The notes below the pieces were generated by a model that was given only the letters and a program-made list of their open reading frames with translations, searched no databases and was not told the DNA's origin. DNA of 62,152 bases from IMG/VR virus record IMGVR_UViG_3300033153_008214, positions 1 to 62,152 of that record; one strand, written 5' to 3'. Source of the DNA: a virus. Its lineage: Duplodnaviria; Caudoviricetes. Positions 1,287 to 55,149 of this stretch are shown here, one piece after another (positions within the stretch are counted from its first letter, which is position 1; each line of letters starts with the position of its first letter). Both the position numbers and the translations under genes were made by a program.

Positions 1287-3410
1287 ATGGGCATCAAGGC
1301 ATTTCAGGCAAATCTTACACCGGTAGGTCATTTTGATATATTGGATACAGACCTTGCAGGTTTGAAGGGAGGGGAAATCCTTGTCTTTGATCGTCTTGAT
1401 GAATCTGTAGGTGATACGGCAGCACCAGATGTTTTTAGAGGAGACGGGTATAATTCAGTATTGAGGCTTGCTAGCTCACTGGATAATGGTCCTTTCTTCC
1501 TCGCAGCTAATGAGGAAGAAGCCAGGTATAATACTCCAGGCTTTGAAGTAAGTAGCATGTATGCTCAGAACCAACCCTTTGGACAAATGCTTGATTCCTC
1601 TAATAAGGTCTCTATTTATGCTGAAGAAGGTTTTTACAGTATAAGTTCTGACGTAGTTGATGACACAACTGTAAATGCTAATACAGATGTATATGCTAGA
1701 CTGTATGCTGATCCGTCCGGACTGCTTACCACTACTCCGAGTGCAGGTGGATCTCTAGTAGGGTTCTTTATTGAACATAGAGATGGAGATGCATTGCGAG
1801 GGTATCCTAATAAATTTAGGTATCTTGGAACTCATCGGATTGGCGATTCAATCACATTTTATAAAACAGTTGGAGATGGCTATTTTAACCTTAATTTGGT
1901 ATCCGAGATGGTTGGCCAGATGGGACAGCTTGGTACTCCTACGGATGGATACTTTAGTGATGGACTATTAGCGTTAGCATCTACTACGACTATAGCAGAT
2001 GCTGTAGACTCTATAAATGAAAATCTGTTTGTTCTTTCAGTAGCGACTATTGTTGACAGGAATGCAATACTGTCTACGCATCGTTATGAAGGCATGTCGG
2101 TTTATGTAGAGCAAACAGAATGTAGATTTATATTGAAGGTTGGAATTGCAAACTCTAACTGGGTACTGGATGATGACTTTGTAGGTAAACAGGCTTACTT
2201 GGGGTTTGTCGATGAAGATGATTCAGCAACCATCTATGTATCTGCAACTGGTAGTGATATAGATGGTTATGGCAGTATAGATGTTCCTTATCGACAAATT
2301 CAGAGAGCTATGAAGGATATACCTCAGGGAGCTTCTGGAGATTTTTATATTCAGTTGGGGGCGGGTTCATTCAAGCCGTTTATATTCGACAGAACCATTA
2401 TTGGTAGAATTTATGTAATTGGAAATAGAAGCAATCCTTTAATCAGCTCTGGCATATCTTCAAATTCTTCACTTGCTTCTGGAAAGCATGCCCGAAGAGA
2501 GCTTTCTACAGGCGGTTGGGCTGGGGCAATTACAGATGGCAGTCATTGGATGATTAATGACAAGGGTGTTGCTGATATTTATGCAGTACCTTTGGAGGCA
2601 TCAACATCGCCAACACTGGAACTTGTTGGATATATAAGTTCCGGTACAGGAAAAGAAGTTCATCCCTTTGAAAGTGTAATCACAGAACCTGATGAATACT
2701 ATACAGGGGGTGTGATTACTGCACTAGAAAGAACTACACCAGATCAAGGAAAGTATGTGATTCTTGGCGTTGAGCTTCAGGATATAGTCAACCTTGAAAA
2801 TATATATACTTTGGCCTGCAAATTTACTATGAATAATCATTATTATATGAACCTTAGCGGGTCTGTGTGGTTGGGCGGAACAGTGATGGGCTCGTTAAGT
2901 TATATAGTTGCATTGAATGGATCTACTGTAAATACAGAAGTTGGATTATATCTTTTGGGCGGGGCAGATTTAAGAGTAGAAGGTGGTCATGTAACTTTCA
3001 ACTCAAGCATAATTAAAGACAGCAGTGTTATTAAGTTAACTGATAATAGCTCGCTAGCAATTGGCCAAGCAGATATTGAGACAAGCGGGCCTATAGCATT
3101 AACGGCTGAAAACCGAAGTACGATAAGGCAAGCCGGAGCTATATCTGTAAGCTCAACACTTACAACACTTGTAAGTTTAAATGACTCCTCATTTGTTAGG
3201 AACTCACTTATTGAAGGTAGCACTACAGGAACATGCATGATCTTATCGAATAGTTCAAATGTTTCATTTATGTCTGGGACCACCCTGACTAATTCTGTTA
3301 CAAGTGGGGAAGAGATTAAAGTAGGTGGAAACGCACCAGTTGCGTTCAGTGATTTGCCAAGAACAGATTTAGTCCTAGGTAATACATCGGAAATGTGCAA
3401 GGCAAGTTAA
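1287..3410 (+). CDS. Putative capsid-decoration-anchored fibre/spike protein with C-terminal beta-helix
   Basis: RBS ggag. The N-terminal ~190 aa resemble head decoration proteins (FDILD...GGE; LYADPSGLLTTTP). TIYVSATGSD..GS...PYRQIQRA is a typical beta-helix cap, followed by a Ser/Thr/Asn-rich solenoid. 4 DGY. Confidence 0.5.
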   Translation: MGIKAFQANLTPVGHFDILDTDLAGLKGGEILVFDRLDESVGDTAAPDVFRGDGYNSVLRLASSLDNGPFFLAANEEEARYNTPGFEVSSMYAQNQPFGQMLDSSNKVSIYAEEGFYSISSDVVDDTTVNANTDVYARLYADPSGLLTTTPSAGGSLVGFFIEHRDGDALRGYPNKFRYLGTHRIGDSITFYKTVGDGYFNLNLVSEMVGQMGQLGTPTDGYFSDGLLALASTTTIADAVDSINENLFVLSVATIVDRNAILSTHRYEGMSVYVEQTECRFILKVGIANSNWVLDDDFVGKQAYLGFVDEDDSATIYVSATGSDIDGYGSIDVPYRQIQRAMKDIPQGASGDFYIQLGAGSFKPFIFDRTIIGRIYVIGNRSNPLISSGISSNSSLASGKHARRELSTGGWAGAITDGSHWMINDKGVADIYAVPLEASTSPTLELVGYISSGTGKEVHPFESVITEPDEYYTGGVITALERTTPDQGKYVILGVELQDIVNLENIYTLACKFTMNNHYYMNLSGSVWLGGTVMGSLSYIVALNGSTVNTEVGLYLLGGADLRVEGGHVTFNSSIIKDSSVIKLTDNSSLAIGQADIETSGPIALTAENRSTIRQAGAISVSSTLTTLVSLNDSSFVRNSLIEGSTTGTCMILSNSSNVSFMSGTTLTNSVTSGEEIKVGGNAPVAFSDLPRTDLVLGNTSEMCKAS

Positions 3411-3437
3411 TGCAAGAGTTTAAAATAGGAGAACATC

Positions 3438-3980
3438 ATGGCATTAGAAGTATCTAATTTTAGCAGTGCGTTCGGTCTTTCGGCCCAAAATTCGTATCAT
3501 AGAATCCGCAGCATTAGTGGGTCAGCAGACGGCGGAATATCATATATTATAGAAATCTATTATGATAAAGAAGCAAGAGATTCAGGAAAAGCCCCTCTAT
3601 CAATTCTTTCCAAAGTGGTTCCGGAAAGTCTCGCTTCACGCATAGGTGTAATTTACGAGCTTTACGGAATTCTGAAGCAAGAGTCTGAATATACCTCTGC
3701 GGTAGATGTAATTGATCCGGGTAACTTTGTAACACTTTCAGCAGAGGATGTATCGGGTTCTTACATACTTAGCGGTGCATTAGAGGATGGTTATTCTCTG
3801 AGTGGAGATACCGCGACTGACGTGATGTTTACTGGAAAGTTTGTACTTGCAGGTAATGTTGTAGCTGGCACTGTAGTTGGTGCTGACATGTCTGACGTGG
3901 TTGGTACAGCGGGTGCATTAACTCAGGGTTATATTACTGCGGGTGTTTGCACTGGTCTAATTATACAAAATTTAGTATAG
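3438..3980 (+). CDS. Putative fibre-associated/assembly protein
   Basis: RBS aggag. The N-terminal half (SYHRI...IEIYYDKEAR..GKAP...LYGILK..EY..AVDV) resembles small phage fibre-adjacent proteins. 1 DGY. Confidence 0.4.
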   Translation: MALEVSNFSSAFGLSAQNSYHRIRSISGSADGGISYIIEIYYDKEARDSGKAPLSILSKVVPESLASRIGVIYELYGILKQESEYTSAVDVIDPGNFVTLSAEDVSGSYILSGALEDGYSLSGDTATDVMFTGKFVLAGNVVAGTVVGADMSDVVGTAGALTQGYITAGVCTGLIIQNLV

Positions 3981-3985
3981 CGTAG

Positions 3986-6598
3986 ATGAGTTATTATTCC
4001 TCAGTAGGGTTATCAAATCCTGTATCGGTACATAAGGCGCAGCACAGTGAAGACCCTGGGCTAACGTTTGATTTGCCTATGGATATGAGTGGCCCTAGCC
4101 AGTTACCTACTAACATGACGGTAGATGGCTATGAGGTGGCTCCTACTTTCAGGTATACATCTACGGGGGTAAGAGAGAATCTATTAAGCTATACTGAAGA
4201 TTTCGAAAATGCAGCATGGATTAAAGTAGCTGGTGTTACGGTAAGTGACGGCTACACAAGCCCTTTTGGTAGTGGTACAGCCACATTAATATCCAGTTCA
4301 GCATCAGGACATCAGGCGATTACTACAAATGGGATGGTAATACCTATCCATGCTGGTGAGATATACACTGTATCTATGTACTTAAAGGCAGAAAATATAG
4401 ACTGGGTATTCCTACATCTTGCTAATGGAATAAATGGAGGAGTATATTTTAACTTATCAGATGGATTAGTTGGAAGTACATCAGCGGCTGGAATAGTTAG
4501 TTCAAGAATTGAGGCTATTGGACCGGATTGGTTTCGTGTGTCCATGTCAGTGAACATTACGAGTGGGTATATTGGGTTCTCACTTTATCTCGCCGAGAGT
4601 GATGGCGATTACAATTTAGCTAGTGCTCCCGGTGATGCTATTTATATATATGCTCCTCAGATTAATAGTGGCCCGCTTATCCCATACTATGATGCGGGCA
4701 AAACGTCTGCTGGACCTAATAGAAAGTGGTTCTCTGATGTAGGCCCAGATTTAGATTATGCTGGAAGTGGCAATGATATTTTAATTAAGCCCAGCCCATT
4801 TACTGATGGGGCTCCGGTAATCAAATTTAATTCTGGAAAATGTTTCTCTGCTGTATTAGGTGCCGGTCCAGGAACTAATGATGTTGCAATCGAATATGTA
4901 GGTTTCAATGATTCTTCTGGAGGGGGAGTGTTGTTGGAGTGGTCAGAAGGTGCTGCTGGCACTCCTCGAATAGAGATAAATACCACTCGCAGCGCGACCC
5001 AAGTTTATATAAGAGGGTTCTTGGGTAGTCCTGGAGGAAGTGCATCGACATATGGGTGCAGAGGGAGTAATGGAGATAACCTGTATCACTTCATCGAGTT
5101 TTATGATAATAGTCAGCTTACATCTCAAACAACTGGCCTTATTCAATACGCCAATGGAGCGGCAGATAGCTATTCATTACCAGGAGCAACTAATGATATA
5201 GATGTCAACATGAACACTTCCTCCAGAATAACTATTAGCGGAAGATATAACTATACTTCTACAGATGATTCTGGGGTTGTAGCTATTGCAATACATTCAA
5301 GTGCTAACTGGTATCCTGGTGGCACGGATAATACAACTGTTTGGAAGGAAACTATAAAACGTCGTTCTGCTCAAGTCATGGGCGTATATCCTGCTACTGC
5401 AGTAGGAGATAAGACTCCACTTGTTGCAACCAGAACATCAAATAATTCATTCTTAGATATCCAAGATGATTCTGGTTATAGGACCTTGCATCAGGTGGCC
5501 AAAGGGTGGATGAGAATTTGTAAGAGGCCTGACAATAATGACAAACTTATAAGCGGCTTGCTATCTGAAAAATACGCAACACAGAAACTTCCCTATACAG
5601 ACGATATGATAAATGATTGGGGTGGTCACGCAACAATCTCAAAGCAAGATGGTTATGAAACATTTCAACCCCATCTTGAAGCTCAGGTATGCACCCTTAT
5701 TAGCACAGGTAACACCAATGCAGAGTGCGCCGTTTACTACCCAAACATCACCCCCTCTGGAGATGGATGGACAAGTTGCTGGGCGAAAAAAGGCAATGGA
5801 GAAGCAGATTGGTTTGCACTTAGATTATCTACTGTAACATCAGGGATTGTGGTTCAATATTTTGATCTAGTTAATGGTGTAATTGGTACAGGGACTACGG
5901 ATGTGCTTGATGCATTTATTGAAGATTGGGGAAGTGGCTGGTATAGATGCTGCATGAAACATGAGAATGCAAAAACTGGATATATATACTTGCACCCATG
6001 CGCAGCAGATAACTCTGTCTGGATTACGCCAAGCTCTATAGGGGTAGAGCTAATATCACTTGTTTTCCCCCAGGTTATAAATAATAGTGATGGGCCTACA
6101 AGCTTTATTTTAAACACGGGAACGGGAGGTGTAACGAGGGCGGTTGATATTTTAGAATACACCCCTATAGATAATTATGCTCCCATTACTGGGTACACCA
6201 TCGATGCAGACATACTTAAATATCCAGCAGCACACGCGAATAGCATTGCAGGACCATGGGGTTTAAGCAGGACGACCTCTTATCATGGTATACGGGTATA
6301 CTGTAACGGGCCAGATGGAGAATTAATATTCAGGGTCGAGAATGAATCGGATACTACACTTTGGGCAGCGCATACAAGTTCGGATGTATCAGATGGGTAT
6401 GTTCATAATATAAGAGGATCTTGGGAGGCGAATAGCCAAGAAATGTATATTGACGGTAATTTAGATGCTTCCAATACTTTGTCAGATGGGCCACACTCTG
6501 ATATTAATTACCTAAGTGTCGGTAAGGATCGATCGCCATCTGCTATTGAGTTTGACGGTCTGGTATCTAATTTTAAAATATATAACAAGGTGAAATAA
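3986..6598 (+). CDS. Virion spike/fibre protein with lectin-like (CBM/LamG) domains, paralog 1
   Basis: NLLSYTEDF..AAW...WFRVS..IYAPQIN and a second copy (WYRCC...PTSFI...VTRAVD) resemble phage spike/fibre beta-sandwich repeats. The C-terminus is LamG-like (MYIDG...FDGLVSNFKIYNK). 4 DGY. Confidence 0.6.
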   Translation: MSYYSSVGLSNPVSVHKAQHSEDPGLTFDLPMDMSGPSQLPTNMTVDGYEVAPTFRYTSTGVRENLLSYTEDFENAAWIKVAGVTVSDGYTSPFGSGTATLISSSASGHQAITTNGMVIPIHAGEIYTVSMYLKAENIDWVFLHLANGINGGVYFNLSDGLVGSTSAAGIVSSRIEAIGPDWFRVSMSVNITSGYIGFSLYLAESDGDYNLASAPGDAIYIYAPQINSGPLIPYYDAGKTSAGPNRKWFSDVGPDLDYAGSGNDILIKPSPFTDGAPVIKFNSGKCFSAVLGAGPGTNDVAIEYVGFNDSSGGGVLLEWSEGAAGTPRIEINTTRSATQVYIRGFLGSPGGSASTYGCRGSNGDNLYHFIEFYDNSQLTSQTTGLIQYANGAADSYSLPGATNDIDVNMNTSSRITISGRYNYTSTDDSGVVAIAIHSSANWYPGGTDNTTVWKETIKRRSAQVMGVYPATAVGDKTPLVATRTSNNSFLDIQDDSGYRTLHQVAKGWMRICKRPDNNDKLISGLLSEKYATQKLPYTDDMINDWGGHATISKQDGYETFQPHLEAQVCTLISTGNTNAECAVYYPNITPSGDGWTSCWAKKGNGEADWFALRLSTVTSGIVVQYFDLVNGVIGTGTTDVLDAFIEDWGSGWYRCCMKHENAKTGYIYLHPCAADNSVWITPSSIGVELISLVFPQVINNSDGPTSFILNTGTGGVTRAVDILEYTPIDNYAPITGYTIDADILKYPAAHANSIAGPWGLSRTTSYHGIRVYCNGPDGELIFRVENESDTTLWAAHTSSDVSDGYVHNIRGSWEANSQEMYIDGNLDASNTLSDGPHSDINYLSVGKDRSPSAIEFDGLVSNFKIYNKVK

Positions 6599-7092
6599 TG
6601 TCAAGAAAAAATTTAACAGCCAATGAGCATGCCAAGGTAGCAAGTGCTTTCGCTAATAAGCATGCGGCACCTTTGCAGATGGATGGATATCAGGCGGAGT
6701 CAGTTACGCTTATAATAGACCTGGCTATGGGGAATGAGGCGGAGATATTTGATATTTTGGATACACTAGCTCTGAAAGGATGGGTTGAAGGCTCAATTAT
6801 CATGGACAAGCTTGATGGATATGGTTTACCTATTAATCCAGGTGTAGATAGATACGTCTCTGTTTTAAGTAATGCCCGTAATATTAGAGATGCTGATGGA
6901 GTACACGGCATGTTATCAGCCAAGGTTTTCTCAGCATTCCATTGGAATGATTATCCATTATGGGCATCAATCGATGGATACCCTGCTCATCATTACTGCG
7001 GTGTTCCAGTAGCGGGGACAACTATTAGACCAATGCGGAGACGTAGTAAGCCTATTGAGGTCATCATCGAGCCGCCCGACCCACCTGAATAA
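6598..7092 (+). CDS. Hypothetical protein, translationally coupled to the upstream spike gene
   Basis: TAATG stop/start overlap. 3 DGY in 164 aa. Pro-rich tail. Confidence 0.55.
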   Translation: MSRKNLTANEHAKVASAFANKHAAPLQMDGYQAESVTLIIDLAMGNEAEIFDILDTLALKGWVEGSIIMDKLDGYGLPINPGVDRYVSVLSNARNIRDADGVHGMLSAKVFSAFHWNDYPLWASIDGYPAHHYCGVPVAGTTIRPMRRRSKPIEVIIEPPDPPE

Positions 7093-7133: not shown

Positions 7134-7160
7134 TTGGTAGCTATCCAAGGGCAGGACTGT

Positions 7161-8758: not shown

Positions 8759-11700
8759 ATGACTTTTACTACTGATACACTATCCAAAGCTGCTTTCAAG
8801 ATTCTCAATGGGTTTACTCACAGTTCGAACTCAAAAGATCTGAGCAATGAGGCTGATAGCTCAAGCCCTGTAGTTGCATCATCAGAGATATTTGCAGATA
8901 AATTACTTTCAGTTTCTCAAATTTTAGCTGACGGGTATGGGGTATATGTCTCAGGGCTTACTCTCGTAGAAGATTTGAGTTCGGATGGAAAGTCATACGA
9001 ATTTACAATAGGGGCTGTTTCTGGTTCAGCCTTAGATGGATATATAAATCCTAAGACAGGGAGTTTATATGTAGACGATGACCGTGTTGGCTATTTGCTT
9101 CATCCAAAGTATGATCCAGATTTACGTGCAATCATTCTTGATAACGGAATTGAACGAGCACCCCTGGACTCGACAGATTTTTTCGTGGATTATTATAATG
9201 GTAGAGTAACCAGCGAAGATGATATGCTTCTTGGAGTTACCGGGACAGCAAATGCTTACGTATTTACTGGTAATTTCCTTTCGGATACACTAGACAACAT
9301 CATATCCTCTACACCTACGATTACTGGTGGCAAAGATGGCTATTTGGCTGTTTGGGATAGTGGAAGTACTTTAAATTACGACGAGTCTCTATATTTCGAT
9401 ACGACTAATGACCGATTAGGTATTGGTACTGCTGCACCGAGTTATGAGATTGATGTAGTTGGAGCGGCAAATGTTACTGACCGATATCGTATAGGCAGTG
9501 TTGATGCATTACGAGTTGAGAGTAATGATGTATTTGTTGGAAATACTGGAACGAATGCGAGTGGTGGAAATAATCTTCTTTTGGGTTATTTTGCAGGGCG
9601 CACACTTGGGGCTGGGGATAGAAATACATTTATAGGTTCATTGTCTGGCGAACTTGCTACAGGCTCATCTCAAGGTGTTGCGATAGGTTATGTGGCAGGA
9701 GCAAGAGCGACCGGTTCAGGTTATGTGGCGATAGGATCAAATGCAGGGGCTTTCCAGGATGGAGCAATAGGGCCCGTTTACATAGGCCAGGCCGCAGGTA
9801 AATATGCAGAGGGTAATTATAACACCGCGCTCGGGCATAATGCATTATCTGGTAGTGATGGATATACTACTGGAACATACAATGTCGCTATAGGTAAATC
9901 TGCTGGTTATAGCATCACTACGGCAAATGATAGTGTTCTTATAGGGCAAGAAGCCGGAGTAAATTTATCTACTGGCATCACAAATGTACTTATTGGTAAG
10001 AAGCCAGGTTCTGCAATAACTACGGCTCGTGGTACAGTAATTATTGGTGAAGAGGCTGGGCAGGAAACTAATGCAAGTTATGGAATATTTATAGGCGCGT
10101 TTGCTGGCCGTTACGCAACGGGTGTTGACAATATTGCAATTGGGCAGGTTGCAGGAGAAGGAGTTTCTGGGACAAATACTGGTACATCTAATATATTTAT
10201 TGGAGTGAAGGCTGGACAGAAAATTACATCTGGAGATTCAAATCTTGCTATTGGTAAAGAGGCCGGAGATGCCATAACCACTGGTGGTGGTAATATGTTG
10301 CTAGGTGCTGGTGCTGGCGGATCAATTATAGATGGTGGCAGCAATATCGGTATTGGATTTGGAAGTATTGCAGGCCTTACATCAAGTTATGGAGTGGTTG
10401 GGATCGGCCAAGCGGCGGGGCATATTGGCGGATCATATTCAGTCCACATAGGTTATACTGCAGGTAATACTGATTCAAGCGCATATAATGTTAATATTGG
10501 CTGGTCGGCAGGCAATAATGCTGGTGCATCGGCAACACATTCTGTACGGATAGGTTATCAGGCTGGTCGATATGGTACTGGGCCTGATAATACCATCATT
10601 GGGTATGGTGCAGGAGAGGGAGCGACAGGTCTCAGTACATTTAGCGCTACAACCCTGATTGGCGTCCACGCTGGTAACAATTTAACTACAGGTATACAGA
10701 ATACATTTATTGGTTTTTATTCCGGTCTGGGTGCAACAACAGCTAGTTATAATGTAGTGTCGGGAGTATATGCAGGTTATCGTCTTGACGGCTATAGCAA
10801 TAATGTGTTCTCCGGCTATCAGGCTGGTAGGTATTTGCGTTCGAATGACAATGTCGCTATCGGTTATAATGCTGGGTTAGGTGTAGATGGTATATCTACG
10901 GGCACAGATAATACATTTGTAGGATATGAGTCTGGCCTTGCGATAACTACAGGGTACTTAAATACTTTCGTTGGACATCAGTCAGGAACAAGTAATACCA
11001 CTGGATATGCATCCATATTCATAGGGCCGTATTCTGGTTTAAACTCTCTCGCAAGTGATTATGCTGTAGCCATTGGCTATGAGGCAATGAAGAACGTTGT
11101 TAACTCTGACAACAGTATCGCTATTGGTAGAGGCTCACTTCAGTCGACTACTGTAGGAAGTCAGGTTGCGATTGGGGCCTTTGCGGGAGAGAAAATTGTT
11201 TCCAATGTGGCATTAACTGCTATAGGATATAAGGCCGCACAATTTCTTACAGGAAGTTATAATCTTGCTGTAGGTTATGAGTCCGGCCTTGGCATAGATG
11301 GACAATCTACCGGTGAGTCAAATGTGCTTTTGGGTCACAACTCTGGTAAAAATCTCACTACTGGGAACTATAATGTAGCTATTGGAAAAAGTGCGGGAGA
11401 AAGCTTAGATGGATATAGCAATGTAGTCCATATTGGCTATGAGGCAGGTTTATATTCAAGAGTGAACAGTACCGTGGCAATCGGTTATCAGGCAGGTAGG
11501 GGAGTTGATGGGATTTCGACGGGGGCTTCAAATGTATTTGTGGGTTCAGTGTCTGGGGTTAGCATTACTACTGGCGAAAGAAATGTTGGATTAGGCGCGG
11601 GAGCAATTAATAGCCTAACAGACGGCGATAAGAATATAGGTATAGGTTATTCTGCTGGCGGAGCAGTAACTACCGGTGATGCAAATATCCTTATGGGGTC

Positions 11701-21195: not shown

Positions 21196-21203
21196 GAAGT
21201 AAT

Positions 21204-30352: not shown

Positions 30353-30396
30353 TAAACTGCAACCTAATAGACGATAGTAACTTGCAGAGGACAGTT

Positions 30397-31287
30397 GTGG
30401 CTATTCCATATGATCGTAGTGCTGTTCCAGTAGGCTCTTCTGTACGCCTTGAAGTCCAGTTTAAAGACTCCGCAGGGAACTCTAAGGATGCTCAAGCTAC
30501 ACCCACGTTTGAGGTACAGGATGCCTCTAACGCAGTTGTACTTGCCGCATCAGCTACTGGAGTAACCCGTACTGCTAAAGGGCGGTATCGTTACGAATAT
30601 ACTATACCCACCGGTTATGTCTCAGGTATATGGAATGATATCTGGGTAGGTACCGTAGATGGATATCAACTCACTGAAGTATTTAATTTCACAGTAAATA
30701 GTGTAGGAAGTATAGAATCTACCGGCTCTAGTATTCCAGAAGATGATTATACTCTAGATGATGATGATCTGGAGTATGATTACACTCAGGAAGAAATCCA
30801 AGGTATTTTGCTACTTAGGGGAATGTTGAAAAAACGTTTGAGAAGTACCATCTATAATACCGAAGGATCCTCTTGCCCCATCTTCTCTAATGATTTGCTA
30901 TTAAGCTTCCTATGTGCCTCTCTATCTGAACTAAATGCAACTCCCGCATTTACAACTTACTCCTTTGCTGATAATGTCATTCAAACTCTAGCTGTAGACC
31001 TTATGACACAGGGTGCCTTGCTAGTTGCCTGGTCAAGCCAAGCTATCATAGAAGCCGGATTCGAACTAACTGTGAATGACAATGGAGTTACTGTTAACCC
31101 TCCACCCGTCAGCACTACGATGACAGGATTATATACTACGCAACTCACGGAGTATAGGGCTAAGTTGAAGGAATTTAAGAGGAATCATCGCGCCTCAGCT
31201 CGTGGCCTAAGTGCAGGTAACCTACTTAACGGTAGGAATTTCAGAGTTCGAAGATTACGACACCGAAAAGAATTAAGATTGATCTGA
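30397..31287 (+). CDS. Putative neck/head-completion (adaptor) protein with N-terminal Ig-like domain
   Basis: GTG start after gagga. Ig-like N-domain (GRYRYEYTIP...WNDIW), then a helical domain (SLSELNATP...VNDNGVTVNPP) and a basic C-terminus. Position upstream of the tail module fits. 1 DGY. Confidence 0.5.
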   Translation: MAIPYDRSAVPVGSSVRLEVQFKDSAGNSKDAQATPTFEVQDASNAVVLAASATGVTRTAKGRYRYEYTIPTGYVSGIWNDIWVGTVDGYQLTEVFNFTVNSVGSIESTGSSIPEDDYTLDDDDLEYDYTQEEIQGILLLRGMLKKRLRSTIYNTEGSSCPIFSNDLLLSFLCASLSELNATPAFTTYSFADNVIQTLAVDLMTQGALLVAWSSQAIIEAGFELTVNDNGVTVNPPPVSTTMTGLYTTQLTEYRAKLKEFKRNHRASARGLSAGNLLNGRNFRVRRLRHRKELRLI

Positions 31288-31441
31288 ATTTCTAGGGACT
31301 TGTAAGCATTGTGCAAATTGCTAAATAGTAGCGAATTAGGTTAAGATAGGATAGACTCAAAGCCGGACTTTCTTTAAAAGATACGATCTTTAATTAGGGC
31401 TCGCGACGATTAAGATGTATTTATGTCTTAAGGAGGGTCTT

Positions 31442-39994: not shown

Positions 39995-40003
39995 AGAGAC
40001 GAT

Positions 40004-47600: not shown

Positions 47601-50600
47601 GAAACTCTATCAGTTGATATTCAAAATAGCTCCTTTGCAAGTACGTTTACCAATACTGGTACCGGGTCTAGGGAAACATTTGCAGATAATTGTGAGTTTA
47701 GTGGAAACGTATCCTTTACTAGCTCTGAGGCCAGGATTGACAACTCTATATTGAGTGGTTCAGGAACGATTTTATCAAACAGCTCTCAGACCTTCGTAAG
47801 AAGTACTATCTTTGATCAGGCTCGCATACAGACTACATTTGACGCATTCTTAACGGGTTGTACATTTGAGAATCACAGTTCGGTAAATACTATCGCTACC
47901 TCAAGTGGTGGACCGATGATGATAGATAACTGCGTATTCCAGAATATGACAAGCTCTCTTACTGGAACCATGATTTTGATCTCTGCGTCAAGTGGTACCA
48001 TAAGCAATAGTTTCTTCAAGTCTGTTACTATGACAGGTACCGCAGCATTGATTTCTGCCACTAGTGTGGTAGATAGTTTCTTCAAATCAAACACTTATAC
48101 TACCACTCAGGCTATTACGGTTCAAACTTTTTCTGATAACTTGGCTGAAAGTAATACTGGTGATATGCTGGTAGGTGCTCGCATATTTAATGGTAATGAT
48201 GGGATACCTTCTGTAGGTGGAGCTGATGTAAGATCAGTATCAGGAAATAGTTTTCCTTCTGCGAGCACTCTTGGTTACAATGTTGATATAGGAAGTGATG
48301 GGTATGCAGTAATTATTGGTAATCAGTTTACTGATATTGTAGCTAGTGCAATAGGTATAACTTGTACCTCAGTATCTACTGGCATTAACATATCTAACAA
48401 CTATTTTGCTGGGGCGGGGGCAACAAGTACTGGCATAGCTCTAACTAATGCTACAGATTTGATAGTATCTACGAACACTTTTGACAATTGTGAATCTTTA
48501 TCTACCAGTGTTGAAGCGACTAGCTTATTCATTAGTGGGAATCGATTTGGTGAGCTGGATGAATCCTTCCTAGCTGGAGATAACCTACAGTTTGTAAATA
48601 ATAAGAAAGTAAATGGTACTTTCACTATTAACACTTCTACAGCAGATGAATGGAGGGTGATTAATAATCAGATGAGTGGTGGTTTACACTTGATTGGTAC
48701 TACTTTGACGAATACCTTGATTTGTGAGAATACTTTTAGCTTGCTTACATTTGAACTTGGTTTGAATGAAGCTATTATGGCTAATAATGTAGGCCTGATG
48801 AGCACTGTTGGAACGGTAGATTTTGAACAGGTTATTTGTTCTCAGAATGACGGCCTGTTTACCGGAGCAAGTTCTGCAAATGTGGTTTGGAGTAAGAGTA
48901 CTATAAGTGAAAATATCTGGAATACTGGAGATACTTACACAACTCTGACCATGAAGAGTGATGGGTCTAATACTCCGGCGTTGGTAAACATTACTCAGAA
49001 CTTGTTCTATGAGACTGATATAGAGATTGGTGCAGCGAATCAGATTGACCAGGTGTCTTTCTCAGATAATCTGTCTGTTGGTGAAACGCTTGCCCGGTCT
49101 TTAAATATAGCAGCTCACATGAATAACAGCTATATTTCAAGGAATTTGAACTTTGATATTGGTATGATTGGTTCAAACAATATGACTATTTCGCTTAATA
49201 GTTTAAGTAGTCAGACGATTAGCTTAACCGGTCAAATTAACTCTACACTGGTTACCGGCAACTTTGTAAATAACTTGCTGGTGAGTGGTGATAGTGCTAC
49301 TGGCCTTATTATCAACAGCAACGTTGTGTTTAACAACATTGATGTCAACCGTACCTTAGCCGCTACTGCGAGTATCACCGGAGCCATGATCTCTGACAAC
49401 TTTGTAGTTGCAAATATTAGAATATCTGACACTATTTTCTCAGGCTCTCCTGCAGTAGGCAGAGATTTCAGATTTATTGATTGCACTATATCTGGAAATA
49501 GAATTGGTGGAAGTTTATTATTTGCAGATTCTGGAACACTGACATCTACCTCTGTTCAGTATCTAATAACTGGTAATACAGTAAAGGATAATGTCACTAC
49601 ATCTGACATACGATTAATTGCATTTACAGGTGTAATGTCTGATACAATAGTTATGTTTAAAGATAATATGGTTTCTGGGAATAGTGTCGGAGGGAGCTTA
49701 ACTATTGGCAGCAATGGGGACCACTCGTATATCTCAGGGTCAGAGTTTTCTGGAAATATTATTTCTGGGAATAACATTATGTCACTTTTGTCTCTACAAA
49801 CAGAGGGCATTTCTGTAATTACAGCTTCGAATAACTATGTCAATTCCAATAAAATTGGAGGCTCGTTCTCGTTCGAAGGATTTAATTTAGATACATTTAC
49901 TTTCAATGATAACTTGGTCGGTTCTTCAACAGTTGTAAGTTTTAATAATCCTAGTTCGGCGGTTCTTGACTCTGACACTTACTTTCATTCTATATACAGC
50001 AATATATCTTTCAAAGGCAATGTTTTTGAAGGAGATATAGATATGGTATTAGGTTTTACTGGTCCGGCAGATGGTTATGGTGTGGACTTGAATGGATTTA
50101 CGTTTTCTGGAAATACTGCGCCATTAAATAATTTTACAATTCGCTCAAGCAATTTATCCTTTTTTATGCTTAATCGGTGTGAGTTTAACGACAATGAGAT
50201 TCGAGGTATAAGTATTGGAGCTGATATATGGAGAGGTGGTGTAACGGGGGTTGGTATAATCAATAATACATCTGTCATAGGGAATGTTTTCCCTGGACAA
50301 TATGACAGCTCTGTTGGCATAGATTTAGCTTGGCCCGGCTTTGAAATTACCGATAAGTCAGGAAATCAGGAAGCTCGGATATATACAACTAATTTTATAT
50401 TTAATTCTAATTCTGCTGGTCACTTATACGACCCATCTGTACTTGGACTAGTTGACTTTGATACATTTTCGGATGGATTTCCTCGTGCAAAATTTGTATT
50501 TCGTCAAAAAGTGGACGGGTCCTCTTATCAATTGAATGGAATGTATTGGTCAAACTTCATTGGCAACTCTAGCATAAGTTTTGAATTCTCGAATCAAGCT

Positions 50601-51197
50601 ACAAATACAACAGTTGCCAACAGCTTGATAATGCTATATGAATGTACTTGGTCTGGCAATGTAGCAATGTCTCTACTATTAGAATCTACGACTCCTTCTC
50701 TTGGAAGCCTAAGGGGAGTTTATCTGTACAGCAGCATACTTTCTGGAAATAGTTGGGATGTCAAGAGTACAGCAAGTGGCTCAGTATCTTTGTCCGTACC
50801 TAAAGAAACAACGTTTTACTCTAGCGAGGTGGTAGCTGGAGATAATAGTATCAATGATGTTACTATTACTGGTAACTATAAATGTGAGATGTATTTTCTT
50901 GATAGCTCAGTCTCGGGCTTGAACAACATTTCCAATAATTGTGATGCGTTGTTGAATTTTGATGATGGTAATTGGAACAATGCTTATCAGACAAAAATTA
51001 TGGGGAATGCTTTTACGGATATAACTTATAATGGTGCTGGAACTTATGATCCAAAGGATGATGCTAATGAGAAAACATATTGGTGGGGAAATACAGCTCA
51101 AACTAACTCTAATTTTACAATTACTAGTACTTTGTCAGGAAATATGTCTGCCTCAAATAGCCTTAGCTCCAATAAAATACCAACTTATATTCCCTGA
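44640..51197 (+). CDS. Large tailspike-like protein with right-handed beta-helix, paralog B
   Basis: N-terminal ~900 aa colinear with paralog A (ESKLDLDFTTQ.LQDQITSND.DI; R..G..G; RYFI..L.SR). Long SGN/TGN beta-helix. 7 DGY. Confidence 0.7.
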   Translation: MSNYPAKIDTDVELPRVDDNVSEIASEVINSLREAVVAVQTTLGKDPQGSAVDLVTRLSQSINDDGTLKLAALTIGSITNAQIASGAAILESKLDLDFTTQNLQDQITSNDIDIAALQKAIAKVISDLAMHVAGTGLRHDTFDIDLNTAYVGTTPPEFAGLTSSELHGVLVEMNDRYLDHTSDSKVEAHKASTVSVDGANFKVIPVEVDDVQEALESLDVARAEEFIKHRDHLHANGFDNWANNIQGYNENLQLVPAIFGQTVVATIISGTRNQIRFPTIDLAAQGVEQGSVIVIADGYAAGSYVVDDVGPRTAMGGKSLLDSTDVEIQSVFPDSLITDGYVDASVFGESSLFTFKGNVASVIRTSSSTLDSVQLARPNAAKVLTLGIKPNLISGGETLNLEVGLDDNNIRTTSIALSGSATIDSLVAEINTSLHGSDAFPAAAYRVGDELLLSHNWDGYVGNYIKVLTTGTANTILGFDGYGADVVSLEVPPTKHSKYYVNGSMLTDFKLISSTTADISGTTITFTDFNPEDSELKPGNMIHVKDHATVAERGSYEITAISPTTVTVHTSIVVGTDVAVEMYHDVIPLAELASNGDAQIIEVFLDSVGRSKYNPRLEFDKTISNLNVVDISDNFIPGSYILNSVIDAGGYNLNFGTTGINTFVPTGFIGKKRVYSESNIEFLDVEVIGILSAGAAAIVINEHINEEEVLEIATIRSNGLESLSDVKDKRLFGTIGLDEIREDVIQSYIEGPLTDLRSNGIVRGFDVITANYADFVYPTYKAVLVRGGSLYVNGVGCSVRTQTVVFPNAAGTYFIVLNQIGVYEIINITTWTMEEILDGSAGEYALIAKVVHDGANVTNTEDLRYFISNLDSRVDLVVDETNNFTGSFATFEAAMNYANSYPSSEKPLIRVVSNEATDITVPAGSREVTIQVDGYVNDVTIHAPCRLESGGLNERASAHIWGDITVSNTCTRLELDGVKVSGAVSITETLSVDIQNSSFASTFTNTGTGSRETFADNCEFSGNVSFTSSEARIDNSILSGSGTILSNSSQTFVRSTIFDQARIQTTFDAFLTGCTFENHSSVNTIATSSGGPMMIDNCVFQNMTSSLTGTMILISASSGTISNSFFKSVTMTGTAALISATSVVDSFFKSNTYTTTQAITVQTFSDNLAESNTGDMLVGARIFNGNDGIPSVGGADVRSVSGNSFPSASTLGYNVDIGSDGYAVIIGNQFTDIVASAIGITCTSVSTGINISNNYFAGAGATSTGIALTNATDLIVSTNTFDNCESLSTSVEATSLFISGNRFGELDESFLAGDNLQFVNNKKVNGTFTINTSTADEWRVINNQMSGGLHLIGTTLTNTLICENTFSLLTFELGLNEAIMANNVGLMSTVGTVDFEQVICSQNDGLFTGASSANVVWSKSTISENIWNTGDTYTTLTMKSDGSNTPALVNITQNLFYETDIEIGAANQIDQVSFSDNLSVGETLARSLNIAAHMNNSYISRNLNFDIGMIGSNNMTISLNSLSSQTISLTGQINSTLVTGNFVNNLLVSGDSATGLIINSNVVFNNIDVNRTLAATASITGAMISDNFVVANIRISDTIFSGSPAVGRDFRFIDCTISGNRIGGSLLFADSGTLTSTSVQYLITGNTVKDNVTTSDIRLIAFTGVMSDTIVMFKDNMVSGNSVGGSLTIGSNGDHSYISGSEFSGNIISGNNIMSLLSLQTEGISVITASNNYVNSNKIGGSFSFEGFNLDTFTFNDNLVGSSTVVSFNNPSSAVLDSDTYFHSIYSNISFKGNVFEGDIDMVLGFTGPADGYGVDLNGFTFSGNTAPLNNFTIRSSNLSFFMLNRCEFNDNEIRGISIGADIWRGGVTGVGIINNTSVIGNVFPGQYDSSVGIDLAWPGFEITDKSGNQEARIYTTNFIFNSNSAGHLYDPSVLGLVDFDTFSDGFPRAKFVFRQKVDGSSYQLNGMYWSNFIGNSSISFEFSNQATNTTVANSLIMLYECTWSGNVAMSLLLESTTPSLGSLRGVYLYSSILSGNSWDVKSTASGSVSLSVPKETTFYSSEVVAGDNSINDVTITGNYKCEMYFLDSSVSGLNNISNNCDALLNFDDGNWNNAYQTKIMGNAFTDITYNGAGTYDPKDDANEKTYWWGNTAQTNSNFTITSTLSGNMSASNSLSSNKIPTYIP

Positions 51198-51732: not shown

Positions 51733-52506
51733 ATGGTACTTGGCACAGGATTATTTGTCAGAAGTGATATATACGATCTTGACAATATTGTAAGACATGT
51801 TGGAATCGTCCATGGACGCAACCTATTGATCGACACCCTCAGAGAAATCTTTGCAAGGGACCGGGAATTTGGCTATAGAGCTGATATCTTTGGGTTTCCT
51901 AAGACTCCTGACCATACAGGTCTGGATATAGATGCTGGTATAGATGATGATGTTACCACTAGACTCTTTATAGGGTCTACTTTCAGGTATGATATCCAAT
52001 TCCTGCCCGCTATTACTGTAAGGCAGACCAGCTCACAGTACAAACCTATCTCGTTTAATCAAAATATGCTTAGCCTTCAGTACCAGAAACAGCGTACTGA
52101 GGATGGCTATGGAAATGTTGACTTTGTAAGAGTTCCTAGCCATTACACTTACGCTGGTTCCTGGGAACAATCGTTTGAAGTTAAGGTTACTAGCAATAGT
52201 CAGGAAGATACTGCTTCTATCGCAGATGTAGTCATGATTAGCTTGCAGAGTACATATAGACGCATCCTAGAGAGGAATGGACTATTTGTAAAGCAAGTCT
52301 CAGCAGGTGGTGAGTCATCTGAACAAGTAGGCAGTAATGACCCACTTTTCTCAGTAGTAATTACGGTAAACACTCTTAGTGAATTTAGAAGAGAGATTCC
52401 AGTAAGTAATCTTTTAGAGAGAATTCAGCTCTGTTTCCATGTAGATCTTGGTAGTGATAAAGACCCACCTGCAAATGGGCTGACAATTAAGCATACTTTC
52501 GAATAA
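51733..52506 (+). CDS. Putative tail terminator/completion protein
   Basis: Lies immediately upstream of the sheath gene. LPAITV...FEVKVTS.S.ED...IAD pattern. 1 DGY. Confidence 0.55.
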   Translation: MVLGTGLFVRSDIYDLDNIVRHVGIVHGRNLLIDTLREIFARDREFGYRADIFGFPKTPDHTGLDIDAGIDDDVTTRLFIGSTFRYDIQFLPAITVRQTSSQYKPISFNQNMLSLQYQKQRTEDGYGNVDFVRVPSHYTYAGSWEQSFEVKVTSNSQEDTASIADVVMISLQSTYRRILERNGLFVKQVSAGGESSEQVGSNDPLFSVVITVNTLSEFRREIPVSNLLERIQLCFHVDLGSDKDPPANGLTIKHTFE

Positions 52507-52584: not shown

Positions 52585-55149
52585 ATGGGCGCAGTAATTC
52601 CAAACGTTTTTGACCCGGTACAACCAGATATCTTTACCAGGGTCAGAACTCGCGAAAGAGTAAATGCTATTTCCGGCGGTTCACGTGTTCTTGCCATAGT
52701 TGGTGAGGGTGAGACTGAGGAAACCTTAGTTATTTCTGCCACTGGTGGCGGAGCTGATGGGTGGAATTCAGATTATTCTGGGACTGCTAATCCAGATGGA
52801 CGACATTTCCAAATCTCTAAGATAGGCCTGGTCAACAGTCGGAGTACTATCTTTAAGAATGGTGTTCCTCTTGCAACTCTTGAAGAGCAGATTACTTCTA
52901 AGGCATTCGATAATCGCTATGATGCCCGAGTAGATCCGCTTACTGGTAGGGTTGAGCTACAACGAGCCCATGTAGTAGACTTTGGTACCGATGTAAATGG
53001 TATTACCCTGTATTACTCCGTTAATTCAAGCAATGTTGGTACTGGCGTACCTGTTATTACTCAATCTTCCCTAGTTGATACGAACGCTCCTGCGGAAACT
53101 TGGACTGCCCGAGTTGTTGGAGTTATTAAGAACTCTGGTGGAGATATTATATCTGGAGAAGCTAGTATCTCAGTAACTGGTACTGAGTCTGGTCAGCTTC
53201 TGGATGTTAATGGTAACCCTTATGTTTGGAAATCTGGTGGGGTTGCAGTAAGCAATGGTGTTTTGAATCTTGCATTTACTGAGAGTGGAACTCCATTCAA
53301 TGTAGGTGACCGATTTACTATGCAGGTAGATAGTGGAGTTCTTTCAGTTAATGATAGCCTCTCTGCTCGCTACATTGCTAGCGAAGACCTTAATAACCCT
53401 GAGACTTTCTCTTCACCTCAAGATGCTTTCGCTATCTACGGTGACCCAAGTGTCACTAATACGCTTTCCCTTGGAATGCAGATGGCATTTGAAAATGGAG
53501 CCCCGGTGGTTACTGCTGTTATGGCCAAACCTCCAGTTCCCAGGAAAACTACTGAGTATCCTATTCTTGCAGATAATCCTCTTACCGATGCGGTAGAAGG
53601 TGCAACTGGTGGATCAGATCTTAAAGACACTGTATTCCCGCTTGCCGTAGGTGCGTTGCCTGATATTGACAGTAATGTCAATGTCTTTGTAGTCAGCTCA
53701 GATGGTACCGAGGAACAACTTCTTCTTAATAAAGATGATTTCTATGACACTGCCTTTACTACTACGGCTCTTGCTTATGCAAACTTTGTACAGGGTCCGC
53801 TTAGTGAGTCATATACTGTATTTACCTCTCCTCAAGTTGAGCAAGATGGTGATGATGGGTATGTTGAAATCCTTAGTGGTACTGAGATTTACTTCTCTGA
53901 CCCACTTGTACAGTTCTCAGCTGACCGCTTAGAGACTGGTGAGGGAGATGTTGGAAAGCAGATTGAAATCCTCTCTCCCGCCGAGGTTATTGGCACCTAT
54001 ACGATTACTAGTGTAGGCGATGGGTATGGCAATCTTAATGTAGCAACTGCTACAGGCACCCCTCCGGGCGCTACAGGAACCATTATAGATGGTTATGTTG
54101 CTTGGCAGATTGTAGATCCTAATGATACGGGTCATGCTTACTTTGCAATTACTGATGATGTTGCGGCAAATAGTCTGACTGCAGGTAAAGGGCTTCGAGT
54201 ATCTTATGTAGATACAGATGATGCAGACCATTTTGATACTAACTGGGGAGAGGCAATTCAAGCTCTTGAACTGGTAGATGTTCAGATGGTTGTTCCGCTG
54301 CCTATGCAGACAATTAGTAGCATCCAACAGGTATTTAAACGACATGTGGAAGTTGAGAGTAATATTCTCAACCAGCATGAGCGGATTCTTATTACGGGTG
54401 CTATTCCAGGGCTTGTCCCAGACAACCTTACTGGTCTAACTAGTGCGGCTGTGGAAGATATTGGTATCTTGGAAGGTATTCAGGGTGATGATCCTGAAGA
54501 AGTGCTTGCTGGTAATATCGAAGATATTACCAATTACTCAATCCCTGATGGGTTTGGAGATAGCTTCCGGGTTGTCTACATGTATCCTGATGAGATTGTA
54601 AGGAATATTGCAGGTCAAAACACTATACTTCCTGGTTATTTCTTAGCTGCTGCTCTTGGTGGGTATCTTGGCGGACAATTGAACATTGCTCTTCCTGCTA
54701 CCTTTAAGACTCTTGCTGGATTCAACATCCTTAATGACAAGCGTCTTAGGAAACGAACTAAGAATCAACTTGCTGGAGCAGGTGTGCTAGTTGTTGAGCC
54801 GATTGCTGGTGGTGGTAAAATGCTCTGGGGTAAAACGACTGTTCAGTCTGGAGCACCAGAGGAAGAAGAGATTAGCATTGTAGCTATTAGGGATCAGGTT
54901 GCTCGTACTATTCGTGCAAGCTTAAGACCCTTCATTGGTAGGATTAATAGTCCGACCATTGTTGCAGAGCTAAATGCCGGAATTGGAAAACTTCTCAGGT
55001 CACTAGTTGGGCAGGGGCTTCTAGCTGGATTCGGTTCTATTACCGTGCAGAGGAATCCGATTGAGCCTCGACAAGTTGACATTGGTGTAACCATTCATCC
55101 TGTAGGCGTGTTGGATTGGGCGTTTGTGGATGTGATCGCCGAGCTCTAG
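52585..55149 (+). CDS. Contractile tail sheath protein
   Basis: N-terminal QPDIF. C-terminal sheath domain (HER...RVVY..P...LAAAL...L..AGVLVV...WGKTT...EISIV.IRD...FIG...VTIHPV..LDW..V). RBS ggagg. 3 DGY. Confidence 0.85.
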   Translation: MGAVIPNVFDPVQPDIFTRVRTRERVNAISGGSRVLAIVGEGETEETLVISATGGGADGWNSDYSGTANPDGRHFQISKIGLVNSRSTIFKNGVPLATLEEQITSKAFDNRYDARVDPLTGRVELQRAHVVDFGTDVNGITLYYSVNSSNVGTGVPVITQSSLVDTNAPAETWTARVVGVIKNSGGDIISGEASISVTGTESGQLLDVNGNPYVWKSGGVAVSNGVLNLAFTESGTPFNVGDRFTMQVDSGVLSVNDSLSARYIASEDLNNPETFSSPQDAFAIYGDPSVTNTLSLGMQMAFENGAPVVTAVMAKPPVPRKTTEYPILADNPLTDAVEGATGGSDLKDTVFPLAVGALPDIDSNVNVFVVSSDGTEEQLLLNKDDFYDTAFTTTALAYANFVQGPLSESYTVFTSPQVEQDGDDGYVEILSGTEIYFSDPLVQFSADRLETGEGDVGKQIEILSPAEVIGTYTITSVGDGYGNLNVATATGTPPGATGTIIDGYVAWQIVDPNDTGHAYFAITDDVAANSLTAGKGLRVSYVDTDDADHFDTNWGEAIQALELVDVQMVVPLPMQTISSIQQVFKRHVEVESNILNQHERILITGAIPGLVPDNLTGLTSAAVEDIGILEGIQGDDPEEVLAGNIEDITNYSIPDGFGDSFRVVYMYPDEIVRNIAGQNTILPGYFLAAALGGYLGGQLNIALPATFKTLAGFNILNDKRLRKRTKNQLAGAGVLVVEPIAGGGKMLWGKTTVQSGAPEEEEISIVAIRDQVARTIRASLRPFIGRINSPTIVAELNAGIGKLLRSLVGQGLLAGFGSITVQRNPIEPRQVDIGVTIHPVGVLDWAFVDVIAEL

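Follow-up and report, generated by a model that had tools for sequence, protein, structure and literature searches.

A context-free Asp-Gly-Tyr motif enriched in outward-facing virion proteins of uncultured huge myoviruses and its possible role as an acceptor sequon

INTRODUCTION

Why should one tripeptide, Asp-Gly-Tyr (DGY), recur dozens of times in tail and fiber proteins that otherwise have little in common? The question is raised by a 62,152-nucleotide stretch of viral DNA (IMG/VR record IMGVR_UViG_3300033153_008214, positions 1 to 62,152, referred to here as the window), in which a first, sequence-only reading had noticed the motif and proposed it to be a virion-wide recognition sequon for particle modification or docking. 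We followed up this proposal in the window, in its relatives, and in control phages. The DGY enrichment proved to be genuine and very strong; it extends across the clade and is limited to a single class of virion proteins.

At 62 kb, the window amounts to a tail and fiber fragment of an uncultured huge myovirus, because the genomes of its relatives are far larger: the three rated complete measure 435 to 459 kb, and CheckV completeness estimates for IMG/VR relatives point to roughly 400 kb. The window contig stops 7 kb past the sheath gene. We know of no cultured member of this clade. Among named phages, neither a DNA search with the window nor a protein search with the product of the open reading frame (ORF) starting at 34038 gave a match, and a search with the sheath protein returned only Bacillus phage G, at the sheath C terminus (31% identity over 17% of the query).

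RESULTS

Excess of DGY in the window

The ORF set comprised all 34 plus-strand ORFs of at least 100 amino acids (aa), which translate into 19,380 aa. They contain 63 DGY tripeptides, in 17 of the 34 ORFs, together with 181 Asp-Gly (DG) and 155 Gly-Tyr dipeptides. The figures of the sequence-only reading (about 63 DGY in 17 ORFs and about 180 DG) thus stood up to recounting, as did its DGY counts ORF by ORF, all of which were exact, and its codon examples, such as GACGGGTAT at 1443. From the frequency of Tyr, 6.8 DGY would be expected (binomial P = 1e-42), and from the probability of Tyr after a Gly that does not follow Asp, 9.2 (P = 2e-35). DGY is also an outlier under the first-order Markov null that had been suggested as a check, with 14.0 expected (z = 13.1), even though this null includes the DGYs themselves; the next tripeptide with a large count, AIG, reaches only 34 against 15.2 expected (z = 4.8). 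In 2,000 within-protein shuffles, the mean number of DGY was 4.9 and the maximum 13. The Markov, binomial, and shuffle nulls together rule out a compositional artifact. After removal of internal-repeat and paralog copies, 58 of the 63 sites remained (P = 3e-31).

The pattern GAYGGNTAY, the search for which had also been suggested, occurs 63 times in frame but only once in each of the other two plus-strand frames and in two instances (1 + 1) on the minus strand, which rules out a DNA-level motif (restriction, methylation, or repeat). Synonymous codon use inside DGY is like that in bulk: GAT to GAC is 53:10 for Asp (970:291 in bulk), TAT to TAC is 49:14 for Tyr (558:173 in bulk), and all four GGN codons are present for Gly. 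The frame counts and the bulk-like codons uphold the earlier statement that selection acts on the tripeptide and not on a DNA repeat. The motif is also specific in its residues. Tyr comes after 2 of 103 Asn-Gly (NG) and after 6 of 68 Glu-Gly, DGF and DGW occur only 7 and 3 times in the window ORFs, and Gly occupies the middle position of 63 of the 102 Asp-X-Tyr tripeptides. Two established sequons are not enriched in the same proteins: D[ST][AILVMT], known from Bacteroidota, occurs 83 times against 79 expected, and N-x-S/T 222 times against 213 expected.

The one part of the description that did not hold was "virion-wide". DGY is confined to ORFs up to and including the sheath gene, where Tyr follows 63 of 160 DG, whereas the five ORFs downstream of the sheath and the three homing endonucleases together have 0 of 21 (Fisher P = 1e-4). 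The endonucleases account for 10 of these DG, and the lack of DGY in them is expected because they are mobile genes outside the particle. Within the bearing proteins, the sites are skewed toward the N terminus (19, 16, 14, 10, and 4 by fifths of protein length), and the distal, presumably receptor-binding, ends of the proteins carry few of them.

Spread across relatives and control phages

An alignment of 29 sheath homologs was used to collect 80 related loci with sheaths 39 to 100% identical to that of the window, and in nearly all of them DGY makes up 15 to 42% of DG. When 56 loci were split by position, Tyr followed DG in 359 of 1,028 cases (35%) in the 10 kb upstream of the sheath and in 144 of 474 (30%) in the sheath itself, compared with 10 of 659 (1.5%) in the 10 kb downstream, which encodes the tube, tape-measure-like, and hub proteins. 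Pooled over 42 loci, the upstream and sheath ORFs contain 453 DGY against 79.2 expected (z = 42), by far the top tripeptide, while the downstream ORFs contain 8 against 10.9 expected. The same division holds in complete relatives, where the structural blocks have DGY at 52 of 194 DG in G004 and 69 of 214 in G003, compared with 20 of 598 and 15 of 481, respectively, outside them; this outside ratio (3%) equals the Tyr frequency. Orthologs keep their DGY class from genome to genome, and not a single DG occurs in the major capsid protein of G004 (phrog_2522, E = 3e-75).

The comparison with the structural proteomes of other phages, another check proposed at the outset, showed that the excess is not general. 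DGY accounts for 0 of 60 DG in phiKZ, for 2 of 42 and 2 of 51 in phage G, and for 10 of 68 in T4, where three belong to Seg paralogs that share one Seg endonuclease motif, so that DGY as a general property of phage structural proteins is not supported. In the giant phage G ORFs gp420 to gp431, Tyr follows 14 of 83 DG over the stretch examined (14 of 71 in the large ORFs), and 6 of these 14 belong to one paralogous repeat, a NGRHTDGYWYVRG-like element present in six copies in four giant proteins (Table 1). Being a conserved repeat, this element differs from the DGY in the clade of the window, where the motif is context-free. Searches for further related loci with the ORF 34038 protein, P0201, and P0231 found nothing, and a search with P0172 found only two short contigs (DGY at 1 of 8 and 0 of 2 DG upstream and at 1 of 13 and 2 of 14 in the sheath).

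Anatomy, exposure, and evolution of the sites

Across the clade we collected 643 sites, 293 of them nonredundant. The flanking residues had been described as unconstrained, and this is borne out, since the information content of the 293 sites never exceeds 0.24 bit at any flanking position from −12 to +12; position +1 is poor in Lys, Arg, and Pro. Such flanks, together with irregular spacings, rule out a hidden repeated domain around DGY, and pure paralogy is ruled out by the nonredundant fractions in the window (58 of 63) and in the clade (293 of 643).

Two bearing proteins were modeled with AlphaFold2. The model of the ORF 34038 protein (mean predicted local distance difference test [pLDDT] score, 75) is an FN3-like array whose Foldseek matches are FN3 arrays, lambda gpJ, and T5 pb4. 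Six of its nine DGY lie at predicted loop/strand junctions: at residues 26, 125, and 328, D-G is in the loop and Tyr is the first strand residue; at 162 and 185, the strand starts right after Tyr; and at 140, DGY opens the strand. The other three (425, 432, and 444) fall in a low-confidence loop (413 to 455) with a pLDDT of <50. The stretch of about residues 100 to 210, with four sites, is modeled confidently. In the sheath model (mean pLDDT, 80), two of three sites lie in loops adjoining strands (site 502 precedes a strand and 479 follows one), and a long strand contains site 424. In the sheath family, all columns with DGY (reference positions 69, 153, 183, 207, 218, 424, 479, and 502) are N-terminal to the conserved C-terminal core, where matches fall at 647 to 841, and lie in regions which, from the known architecture of sheath proteins, we take to be outer domains.

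At these sites, homologs without DGY have D, V, T, S, A, or E in place of the Tyr. The residues F, W, H, L, I, and M make up only 9% of such replacements in the sheath family and 22% in the 34038 family, compared with 60% and 71%, mainly Phe, at other variable Tyr columns of the two families. Judged from this replacement of Tyr by small or polar residues, unlike that at other variable Tyr columns, DGY sits at exposed positions.

The sites are also conserved above background. Between the window and its G002 orthologs (50 to 77% identical), 12 of 16 DGY are kept, compared with 1,220 of 4,830 tripeptides overall (25%) and 9 of 26 DG not followed by Tyr; four sites occur in the window only and two in G002 only. 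They are gained independently as well. Among 120 sheath homologs (DGY at 242 of 973 DG), 35 have no DGY, and sublineages differ in the column that carries it, where others have APD, NGT, or DGV. Loci with a DGY-free sheath keep DGY-rich neighbors (9 of 24 DG in L029 and 11 of 22 in L054). Tandem forms occur, such as DGYEDGYDDGY in G001 and DGYDGYDGY insertions in the 34038 family, and sites cluster: 64 consecutive pairs are at most 15 aa apart, compared with 33.8 in simulations (maximum of 46 in 200). The suggestion that DGY behaves like a sequon therefore agrees with its exposure, its conservation above background, its independent gains, and its clustered and tandem occurrence. The best reading of these properties is that DGY is a positively selected short linear motif on solvent-exposed loops of outward-facing virion proteins.

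Candidate modifying enzymes

It had been remarked that no obvious transferase is encoded in the window. This is true of the window but misleading, because the contig ends 7 kb after the sheath gene and in relatives a glycosyltransferase of family GT4 lies beyond that point. There, a conserved GT4 gene and sugar-nucleotide genes are found about 30 to 45 kb downstream of the sheath gene, in the late region, and the glycosyltransferase (GT) genes come directly after a second DGY-rich block, which consists of the most DGY-rich giant ORFs. A GT4 ortholog was found in 18 of 19 clade records and in none of three controls (T4, phiKZ, and phage G). In G008, G003, and G001, its gene is immediately downstream of the DGY-rich giant ORFs, and in G004 two further DGY-bearing ORFs stand between them. 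GT2 was present in all five genomes scanned, in 12 of 17 further records, and in none of the three controls; GT1 exceeded its curated cutoff in three of the five genomes.

The closest large relative is G008, whose sheath is 54% identical to that of the window and whose gene order is the same. There, a 2,195-aa ORF (15 DGY among 29 DG), a 922-aa ORF (6 of 13), and a 161-aa ORF precede a compact cassette made up of the 388-aa GT4, a pair of GNAT acetyltransferases, two unknown ORFs, and an NAD-dependent dehydratase/epimerase; TubZ and UvsW come next. The island of G004 is larger, with a fused double GT4, a 1,129-aa GT2-containing protein, a methyltransferase, a GT2, a GT47-like protein, and a DegT aminotransferase. 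The position of a TubZ-like tubulin and a UvsW-type helicase directly after the cassette is conserved in G008, G004, and G003 (Table 1). In three records, the GT4 ortholog contains in-frame stops (one TAG, one TAA, and one TAG plus one TAA, respectively), which could reflect pseudogenes, sequencing errors, or stop-codon recoding of late genes.

No particular chemistry among those that the sequence-only reading had listed is supported. Sulfation finds no phage-encoded sulfotransferase (PF13469, 0 of 5 genomes; PF00685, 0 of 5; controls positive in 2 of 14), although a host enzyme may act instead. Isoaspartate chemistry finds no PCMT (PF01135, 0 of 5; control positive in 14 of 14) and is further disfavored because it does not explain the requirement for Tyr. 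An O-oligosaccharyltransferase of the Wzy_C/PglL type (PF04932) was likewise absent from all five (control positive in 9 of 14), a protein kinase was found in two of five, and a tyrosinase search gave 0 of 5 with a control that was silent too. No thymidylate-synthase/hydroxymethylase family member was found in five complete genomes, and T4-type DNA glycosylation is therefore unlikely to be the purpose of the GTs. Phylogenetic profiling yielded 40 ORFs that G003 and G004 have but G024 and G025 lack; eight of them, chosen for a match in G001 or G008, were scanned. Seven were an FAD oxidoreductase, a ribonucleotide reductase, a Zn ribbon protein, an M24 peptidase, a sigma factor, a SLOG protein, and an epimerase, and one had no match.

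A sister clade with GT4 but little DGY

An exhaustive HMMER search was made for distant sheaths, and P0158 led to a sister clade with 47 loci and the same gene order. Here the ORFs upstream of the sheath are at background level (DGY at 14 of 316 DG); the counts are 22 of 254 in the sheath and 3 of 262 in the ORFs downstream of it, and no other enriched tripeptide stood out. This clade has many GT1 and few GT2 genes. Its only DGY-enriched ORFs are two giant ORFs (about 3,200 and 1,520 aa) directly upstream of GT4, which have DGY at 57 of 262 DG (six nonduplicate genomes), compared with about 5% elsewhere. The proposed search for glycosyltransferases that co-occur with DGY thus had a mixed outcome: GT4 adjoins the DGY-rich giant ORFs, but the sister clade has GT4 without broad DGY. 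The adjacency of DGY-rich giant ORFs and GT4 is common to both clades, and what differs is the extent to which the motif has spread.

Gene content of the window

The features of the window and of the relatives referred to above are collected in Table 1. PHROG and Pfam scans placed the sheath and a tube-like protein and gave tail and fiber matches to phrog_5939, Laminin_G_3, and a right-handed beta-helix. The ORFs at 3986 and 21162 are paralogs. In the ORF at 8759, 7 of 10 DGY lie in an internal repeat (367, 677, 884, 1124, 1366, 1623, and one related), and four copies were dropped as redundant in the redundancy-filtered count. The ORF at 40004 keeps four of its five DGY in a 53%-identical G002 ortholog; the ORF at 44640 shares four sites with G002, has three of its own, and lacks two that are specific to G002. 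The single DGY of the ORF at 51733 is also present in its G002 and G001 orthologs. The C-terminal half of the ORF 34038 protein has invariant C474, C490, C550, E558, H559, R563, C564, and C567, and residues of about 474 to 575, part of which is modeled with low confidence, look like a metal-binding knuckle.

Three homing endonucleases are inserted between structural genes; the types are GIY-YIG, LAGLIDADG, and one matching both HNH and GIY-YIG homing-endonuclease families. Four ORFs begin with a homologous module of about 60 aa, which is also found at the head of three widely separated ORFs in G001 and probably serves different fibers as a shared attachment or adaptor domain. At 60821 to 62150, the ortholog of a 1,556- to 1,658-aa ORF of the relatives switches reading frame: residues 1 to 227 match 60821 to 61501, residues 264 to 450 match 61590 to 62150 in another frame, and about 36 residues are missing between the two parts. 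A frameshift, an assembly error, or a small insertion could account for this arrangement.

Table 1. Positions of DGY-bearing ORFs and other features in the window, its relatives, and phage G
Feature	Record	Position	Strand	DGY/DG	Basis
Tail-protein-like ORF, 707 aa	Window	1287..3410	+	4/7	Weak phrog_4577 and phrog_25379 (tail protein) matches
ORF, 180 aa	Window	3438..3980	+	1/2	Count
Tail protein, 870 aa, C-terminal Laminin_G_3	Window	3986..6598	+	4/13	phrog_5939, E = 7e-30
ORF, 164 aa	Window	6598..7092	+	3/4	Count
Homing endonuclease	Window	7134-8756
Gly-rich repetitive fiber-like protein, 2,437 aa	Window	8759..16072	+	10/24	Counts
ORF, 460 aa	Window	16108..17490	+	2/3	Count
Fiber-like ORF, 1,167 aa, partly paralogous to C-terminal part of ORF 8759	Window	17692..21195	+	2/17
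Tail protein, 874 aa	Window	21162..23786	+	3/8	phrog_5939
ORF, 943 aa	Window	23817..26648	+	3/11	Count
ORF, 215 aa	Window	26657..27304	+	3/3	Count
Shared N-terminal module	Window	27713-27890, 36162-36340, 40004-40180, 44640-44815			35-57% identity
Conserved ORF, 301 aa	Window	30382..31287	+	1/1	Orthologs in G001, G004, and G008
Homing endonuclease	Window	31415-32647
Protein with N-terminal FN3-like array and Cys-rich C-terminal domain, 706 aa	Window	34038..36158	+	9/10
ORF with shared N-terminal module of about 60 aa, 685 aa	Window	36162..38219	+	2/7
Fiber/tailspike-like protein, right-handed beta-helix, 1,542 aa	Window	40004..44632	+	5/15
Giant structural protein, 2,185 aa	Window	44640..51197	+	7/18	Count
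ORF directly upstream of sheath gene, 257 aa	Window	51733..52506	+	Single DGY (residue 124)
Tail sheath, 854 aa	Window	52585..55149	+	3/8 (residues 424, 479, 502)	phrog_23
Homing endonuclease	Window	55178-55945
Contrast class: tube-like protein (at 55981) and four further ORFs	Window	55981..61591	+	0/11	phrog_985 (tube-like protein)
TubZ-like tubulin and UvsW-type helicase	G008 (L148)	10795-13805
TubZ-like tubulin and UvsW-type helicase	G004	290789-293802
GT4 with in-frame stops	G020	141117-142283
GT4 with in-frame stops	G018	39620-40684
GT4 with in-frame stops	G028	19281-20387
NGRHTDGYWYVRG-like element, six copies in gp424-gp427	Phage G (JN638751)	326002-343432

DISCUSSION

DGY enrichment in this clade calls for an explanation by something that reads the tripeptide, because a DNA motif, composition, simple paralogy, and a hidden domain have been excluded and a structural turn is argued against. 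The explanation that we put first, although we would grant it somewhat less than an even chance, is that DGY serves as an exposed sequon, either an acceptor or a recognition site, and that phage-encoded glycosylation is its probable purpose. The sequon would be read in trans, so that a phage-encoded enzyme finds its acceptor on many unrelated folds; in these uncultured myoviruses of 300 to 460 kb, its bearers would be the fibers, the peripheral baseplate proteins, the outer domains of the sheath, and probably decoration proteins. The leading candidate reaction would be cytoplasmic O-glycosylation of Tyr, or of the D-G-Y turn, by the conserved retaining GT4, with GNAT acetyltransferases, a 4,6-dehydratase/epimerase, an aminotransferase, a methyltransferase, and further GTs as putative sugar-nucleotide partners, and its outcome would be a glycan coat on the particle exterior. 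Glycosylation leads because the cassette ends the fiber module, the other modification enzymes tested are absent, and virus-encoded glycosylation has precedents. In a bolder form, which we regard as doubtful, an as yet undescribed cytoplasmic Tyr-directed glycosylation would give the clade a phage "glycocalyx" over the fibers, baseplate periphery, and sheath, with the motif having spread from the two giant fibers adjacent to GT4; the sister clade, with the motif on two giant fiber proteins beside GT4 only, may represent the starting state.

Several observations weigh against glycosylation. We infer both that DGY is recognized or modified and that the GT4 cassette is the partner, and the apparent tie between the two is gene adjacency alone; the glycan of the island could be meant for another target. 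The PHROG and Pfam scans found no transferase among the window ORFs. The one clade record with no GT4, G013, has no GT2 either (its contig ends about 32 kb past the sheath), GT2 was not found in four of the 17 further records, which are too short to judge, and no GT family covaries strictly with the motif, G008 being strongly DGY rich yet devoid of GT2. In the sister clade, 7 of 10 records have a GT4 ortholog (37 to 40% identity) in the same relative position, yet the ORFs upstream of the sheath are at background in that clade, so that the presence of GT4 does not predict virion-wide DGY. The enzyme itself is a generic GT4, like BshA, MshA, and sucrose-phosphate synthase, without a known protein-glycosylating relative, and we know of no precedent for Tyr O-glycosylation by a soluble GT4. 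Finally, no obvious Tyr-modifying enzyme was found among the eight scanned ORFs specific to the DGY clade.

A motif can also be selected with no enzyme at all. DGY might be a noncovalent binding microsite, in which an exposed Asp carboxylate and a Tyr ring on a tight turn, in many copies per surface, give multivalent weak adhesion to a polysaccharide of the host or matrix or to a metal such as Fe3+ or Ca2+. Sugar-binding sites made of an acid and an aromatic residue, and the ligation of iron by Tyr and Asp, are established chemistry. The exposure of the sites and their restriction to outward-facing proteins fit such a microsite as well as they fit a sequon, clustering and tandem runs favor multivalency, Asp and Tyr are both strictly needed, and the failure of GTs to predict DGY would be explained. 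We nevertheless consider it unlikely, as three residues with uninformative flanks would hardly form a defined pocket on dozens of folds, the sister clade has the same fibers and gene order without the motif, and the constant adjacency of the richest ORFs to GT4 is left unexplained.

About as little weight goes to an intrinsic structural device, a turn (Asx or type I′) preferred by the lineage and followed by a strand that begins with Tyr, which would stabilize beta-rich add-on domains without any partner and would have spread by duplication and convergent stabilizing selection. It agrees with the AlphaFold2 models, in which Tyr is at or next to the first strand residue at six of nine sites in ORF 34038 and one of three in the sheath, with the repeat or paralog copies (5 of the 63 window sites and the phage G repeat), and with the mild DGY excess of T4. 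A device of this kind should be as well served by NG, the better type I′ former, which is almost never followed by Tyr, or by DGF and DGW, which are not enriched. Moreover, homologs replace the Tyr by polar or small residues and not by aromatics, three of nine sites in ORF 34038 and the tandem runs lie in low-confidence loops, and equally beta-rich tube, hub, and nonstructural proteins are at or below the DGY background. The classical tyrosine corner has Gly at Y−2, not Y−1; it and a generic beta-turn are disfavored by the position of Gly at Y−1, the rarity of NGY and DGF, and the polar or small replacements of Tyr. More improbable still is that DGY serves as a docking site for another phage protein (decoration, cement, fiber bundling, or chaperone) or as the target of another modification (hydroxylation, cross-linking, or nucleotidylation). 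Sequon-like behavior fits these equally, the cassette has several small conserved ORFs of unknown function, and a 386-aa FAD/NAD(P) oxidoreductase is present in G001, G003, G004, and G008 with no match in two sister genomes. That protein is, on the other side, a generic Rossmann-fold match encoded about 60 kb from the sheath gene, no candidate binder was found, and the enzymes of other modifications are lacking (sulfotransferases and PCMT) or patchy (protein kinase).

A context-free motif of three residues selected on dozens of unrelated folds is rare in any proteome, and a full-text literature search found no DGY motif described in phages. If DGY is a glycosylation sequon, Tyr following an Asp-Gly turn would constitute a new acceptor rule; for hundreds of uncultured huge phages, the sites of modification would be predictable directly from sequence, the motif could serve as a portable tag for glyco-engineering, and huge phages would make their own sugar coat, as giant eukaryotic viruses do. 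Even without an enzyme, the split in DGY use (35% and 30% versus 1.5% of DG) is a sequence-only marker of exposed, unannotated giant proteins.

Several known systems resemble the one proposed here in part. The prohead-protease motifs of T4 gp21 and phiKZ gp175 are short motifs across unrelated virion proteins, all read by one enzyme. They mark head proteins for cleavage, whereas DGY marks tail, fiber, and sheath proteins, is often inside folded domains, and is conserved in a mature-looking sheath. The general O-glycosylation motif of Bacteroidota, D-(S/T)-(A/I/L/V/M/T), begins with Asp and is found on hundreds of unrelated exported proteins; DGY, like it, has three residues, is Asp-initiated, and is context-free. 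In contrast, the Bacteroidota acceptor is Ser or Thr and is glycosylated in the periplasm, and that motif is not enriched in the window. The chlorovirus capsid protein and mimivirus fibrils are cases of virus-encoded cytoplasmic glycosylation at noncanonical acceptor motifs, and they share with the phages studied here a virus-encoded cluster of sugar-nucleotide and GT genes. They differ in belonging to giant viruses of eukaryotes, in carrying Asn-linked or fibril glycans, and in their acceptor motifs, none of which, to our knowledge, is Tyr based.

Tyr-linked glycans are established in bacterial S-layers, where stable beta-Glc-Tyr and beta-Gal-Tyr linkages occur at multiple sites of surface-exposed proteins (PMC2943079). 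That review uses neither "sequon" nor "consensus sequence" as a term, and the route described uses a lipid-linked glycan and an O-oligosaccharyltransferase outside the membrane, a type of enzyme (Wzy_C) found in none of the five relatives. Core glycosyltransferases are also reported in another lineage of jumbo phages, unlinked to any motif in the available part of that paper (PMC12619734). A further parallel is virion glycosylation in mycobacteriophages (Freeman et al. 2023, as summarized in PMC12619734), in which glycans are at the C termini of capsid and tail-tube subunits. No tripeptide sequon is described in that summary; in the clade studied here, the motif is on fibers, sheath, and peripheral proteins, the tube-like protein lacks it, the G004 capsid protein has no DG, and a glycan is only proposed. 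What the two have in common is phage GT genes beside structural genes, which in mycobacteriophages go with glycans on virion proteins and a proposed role in shielding (PMC12619734).

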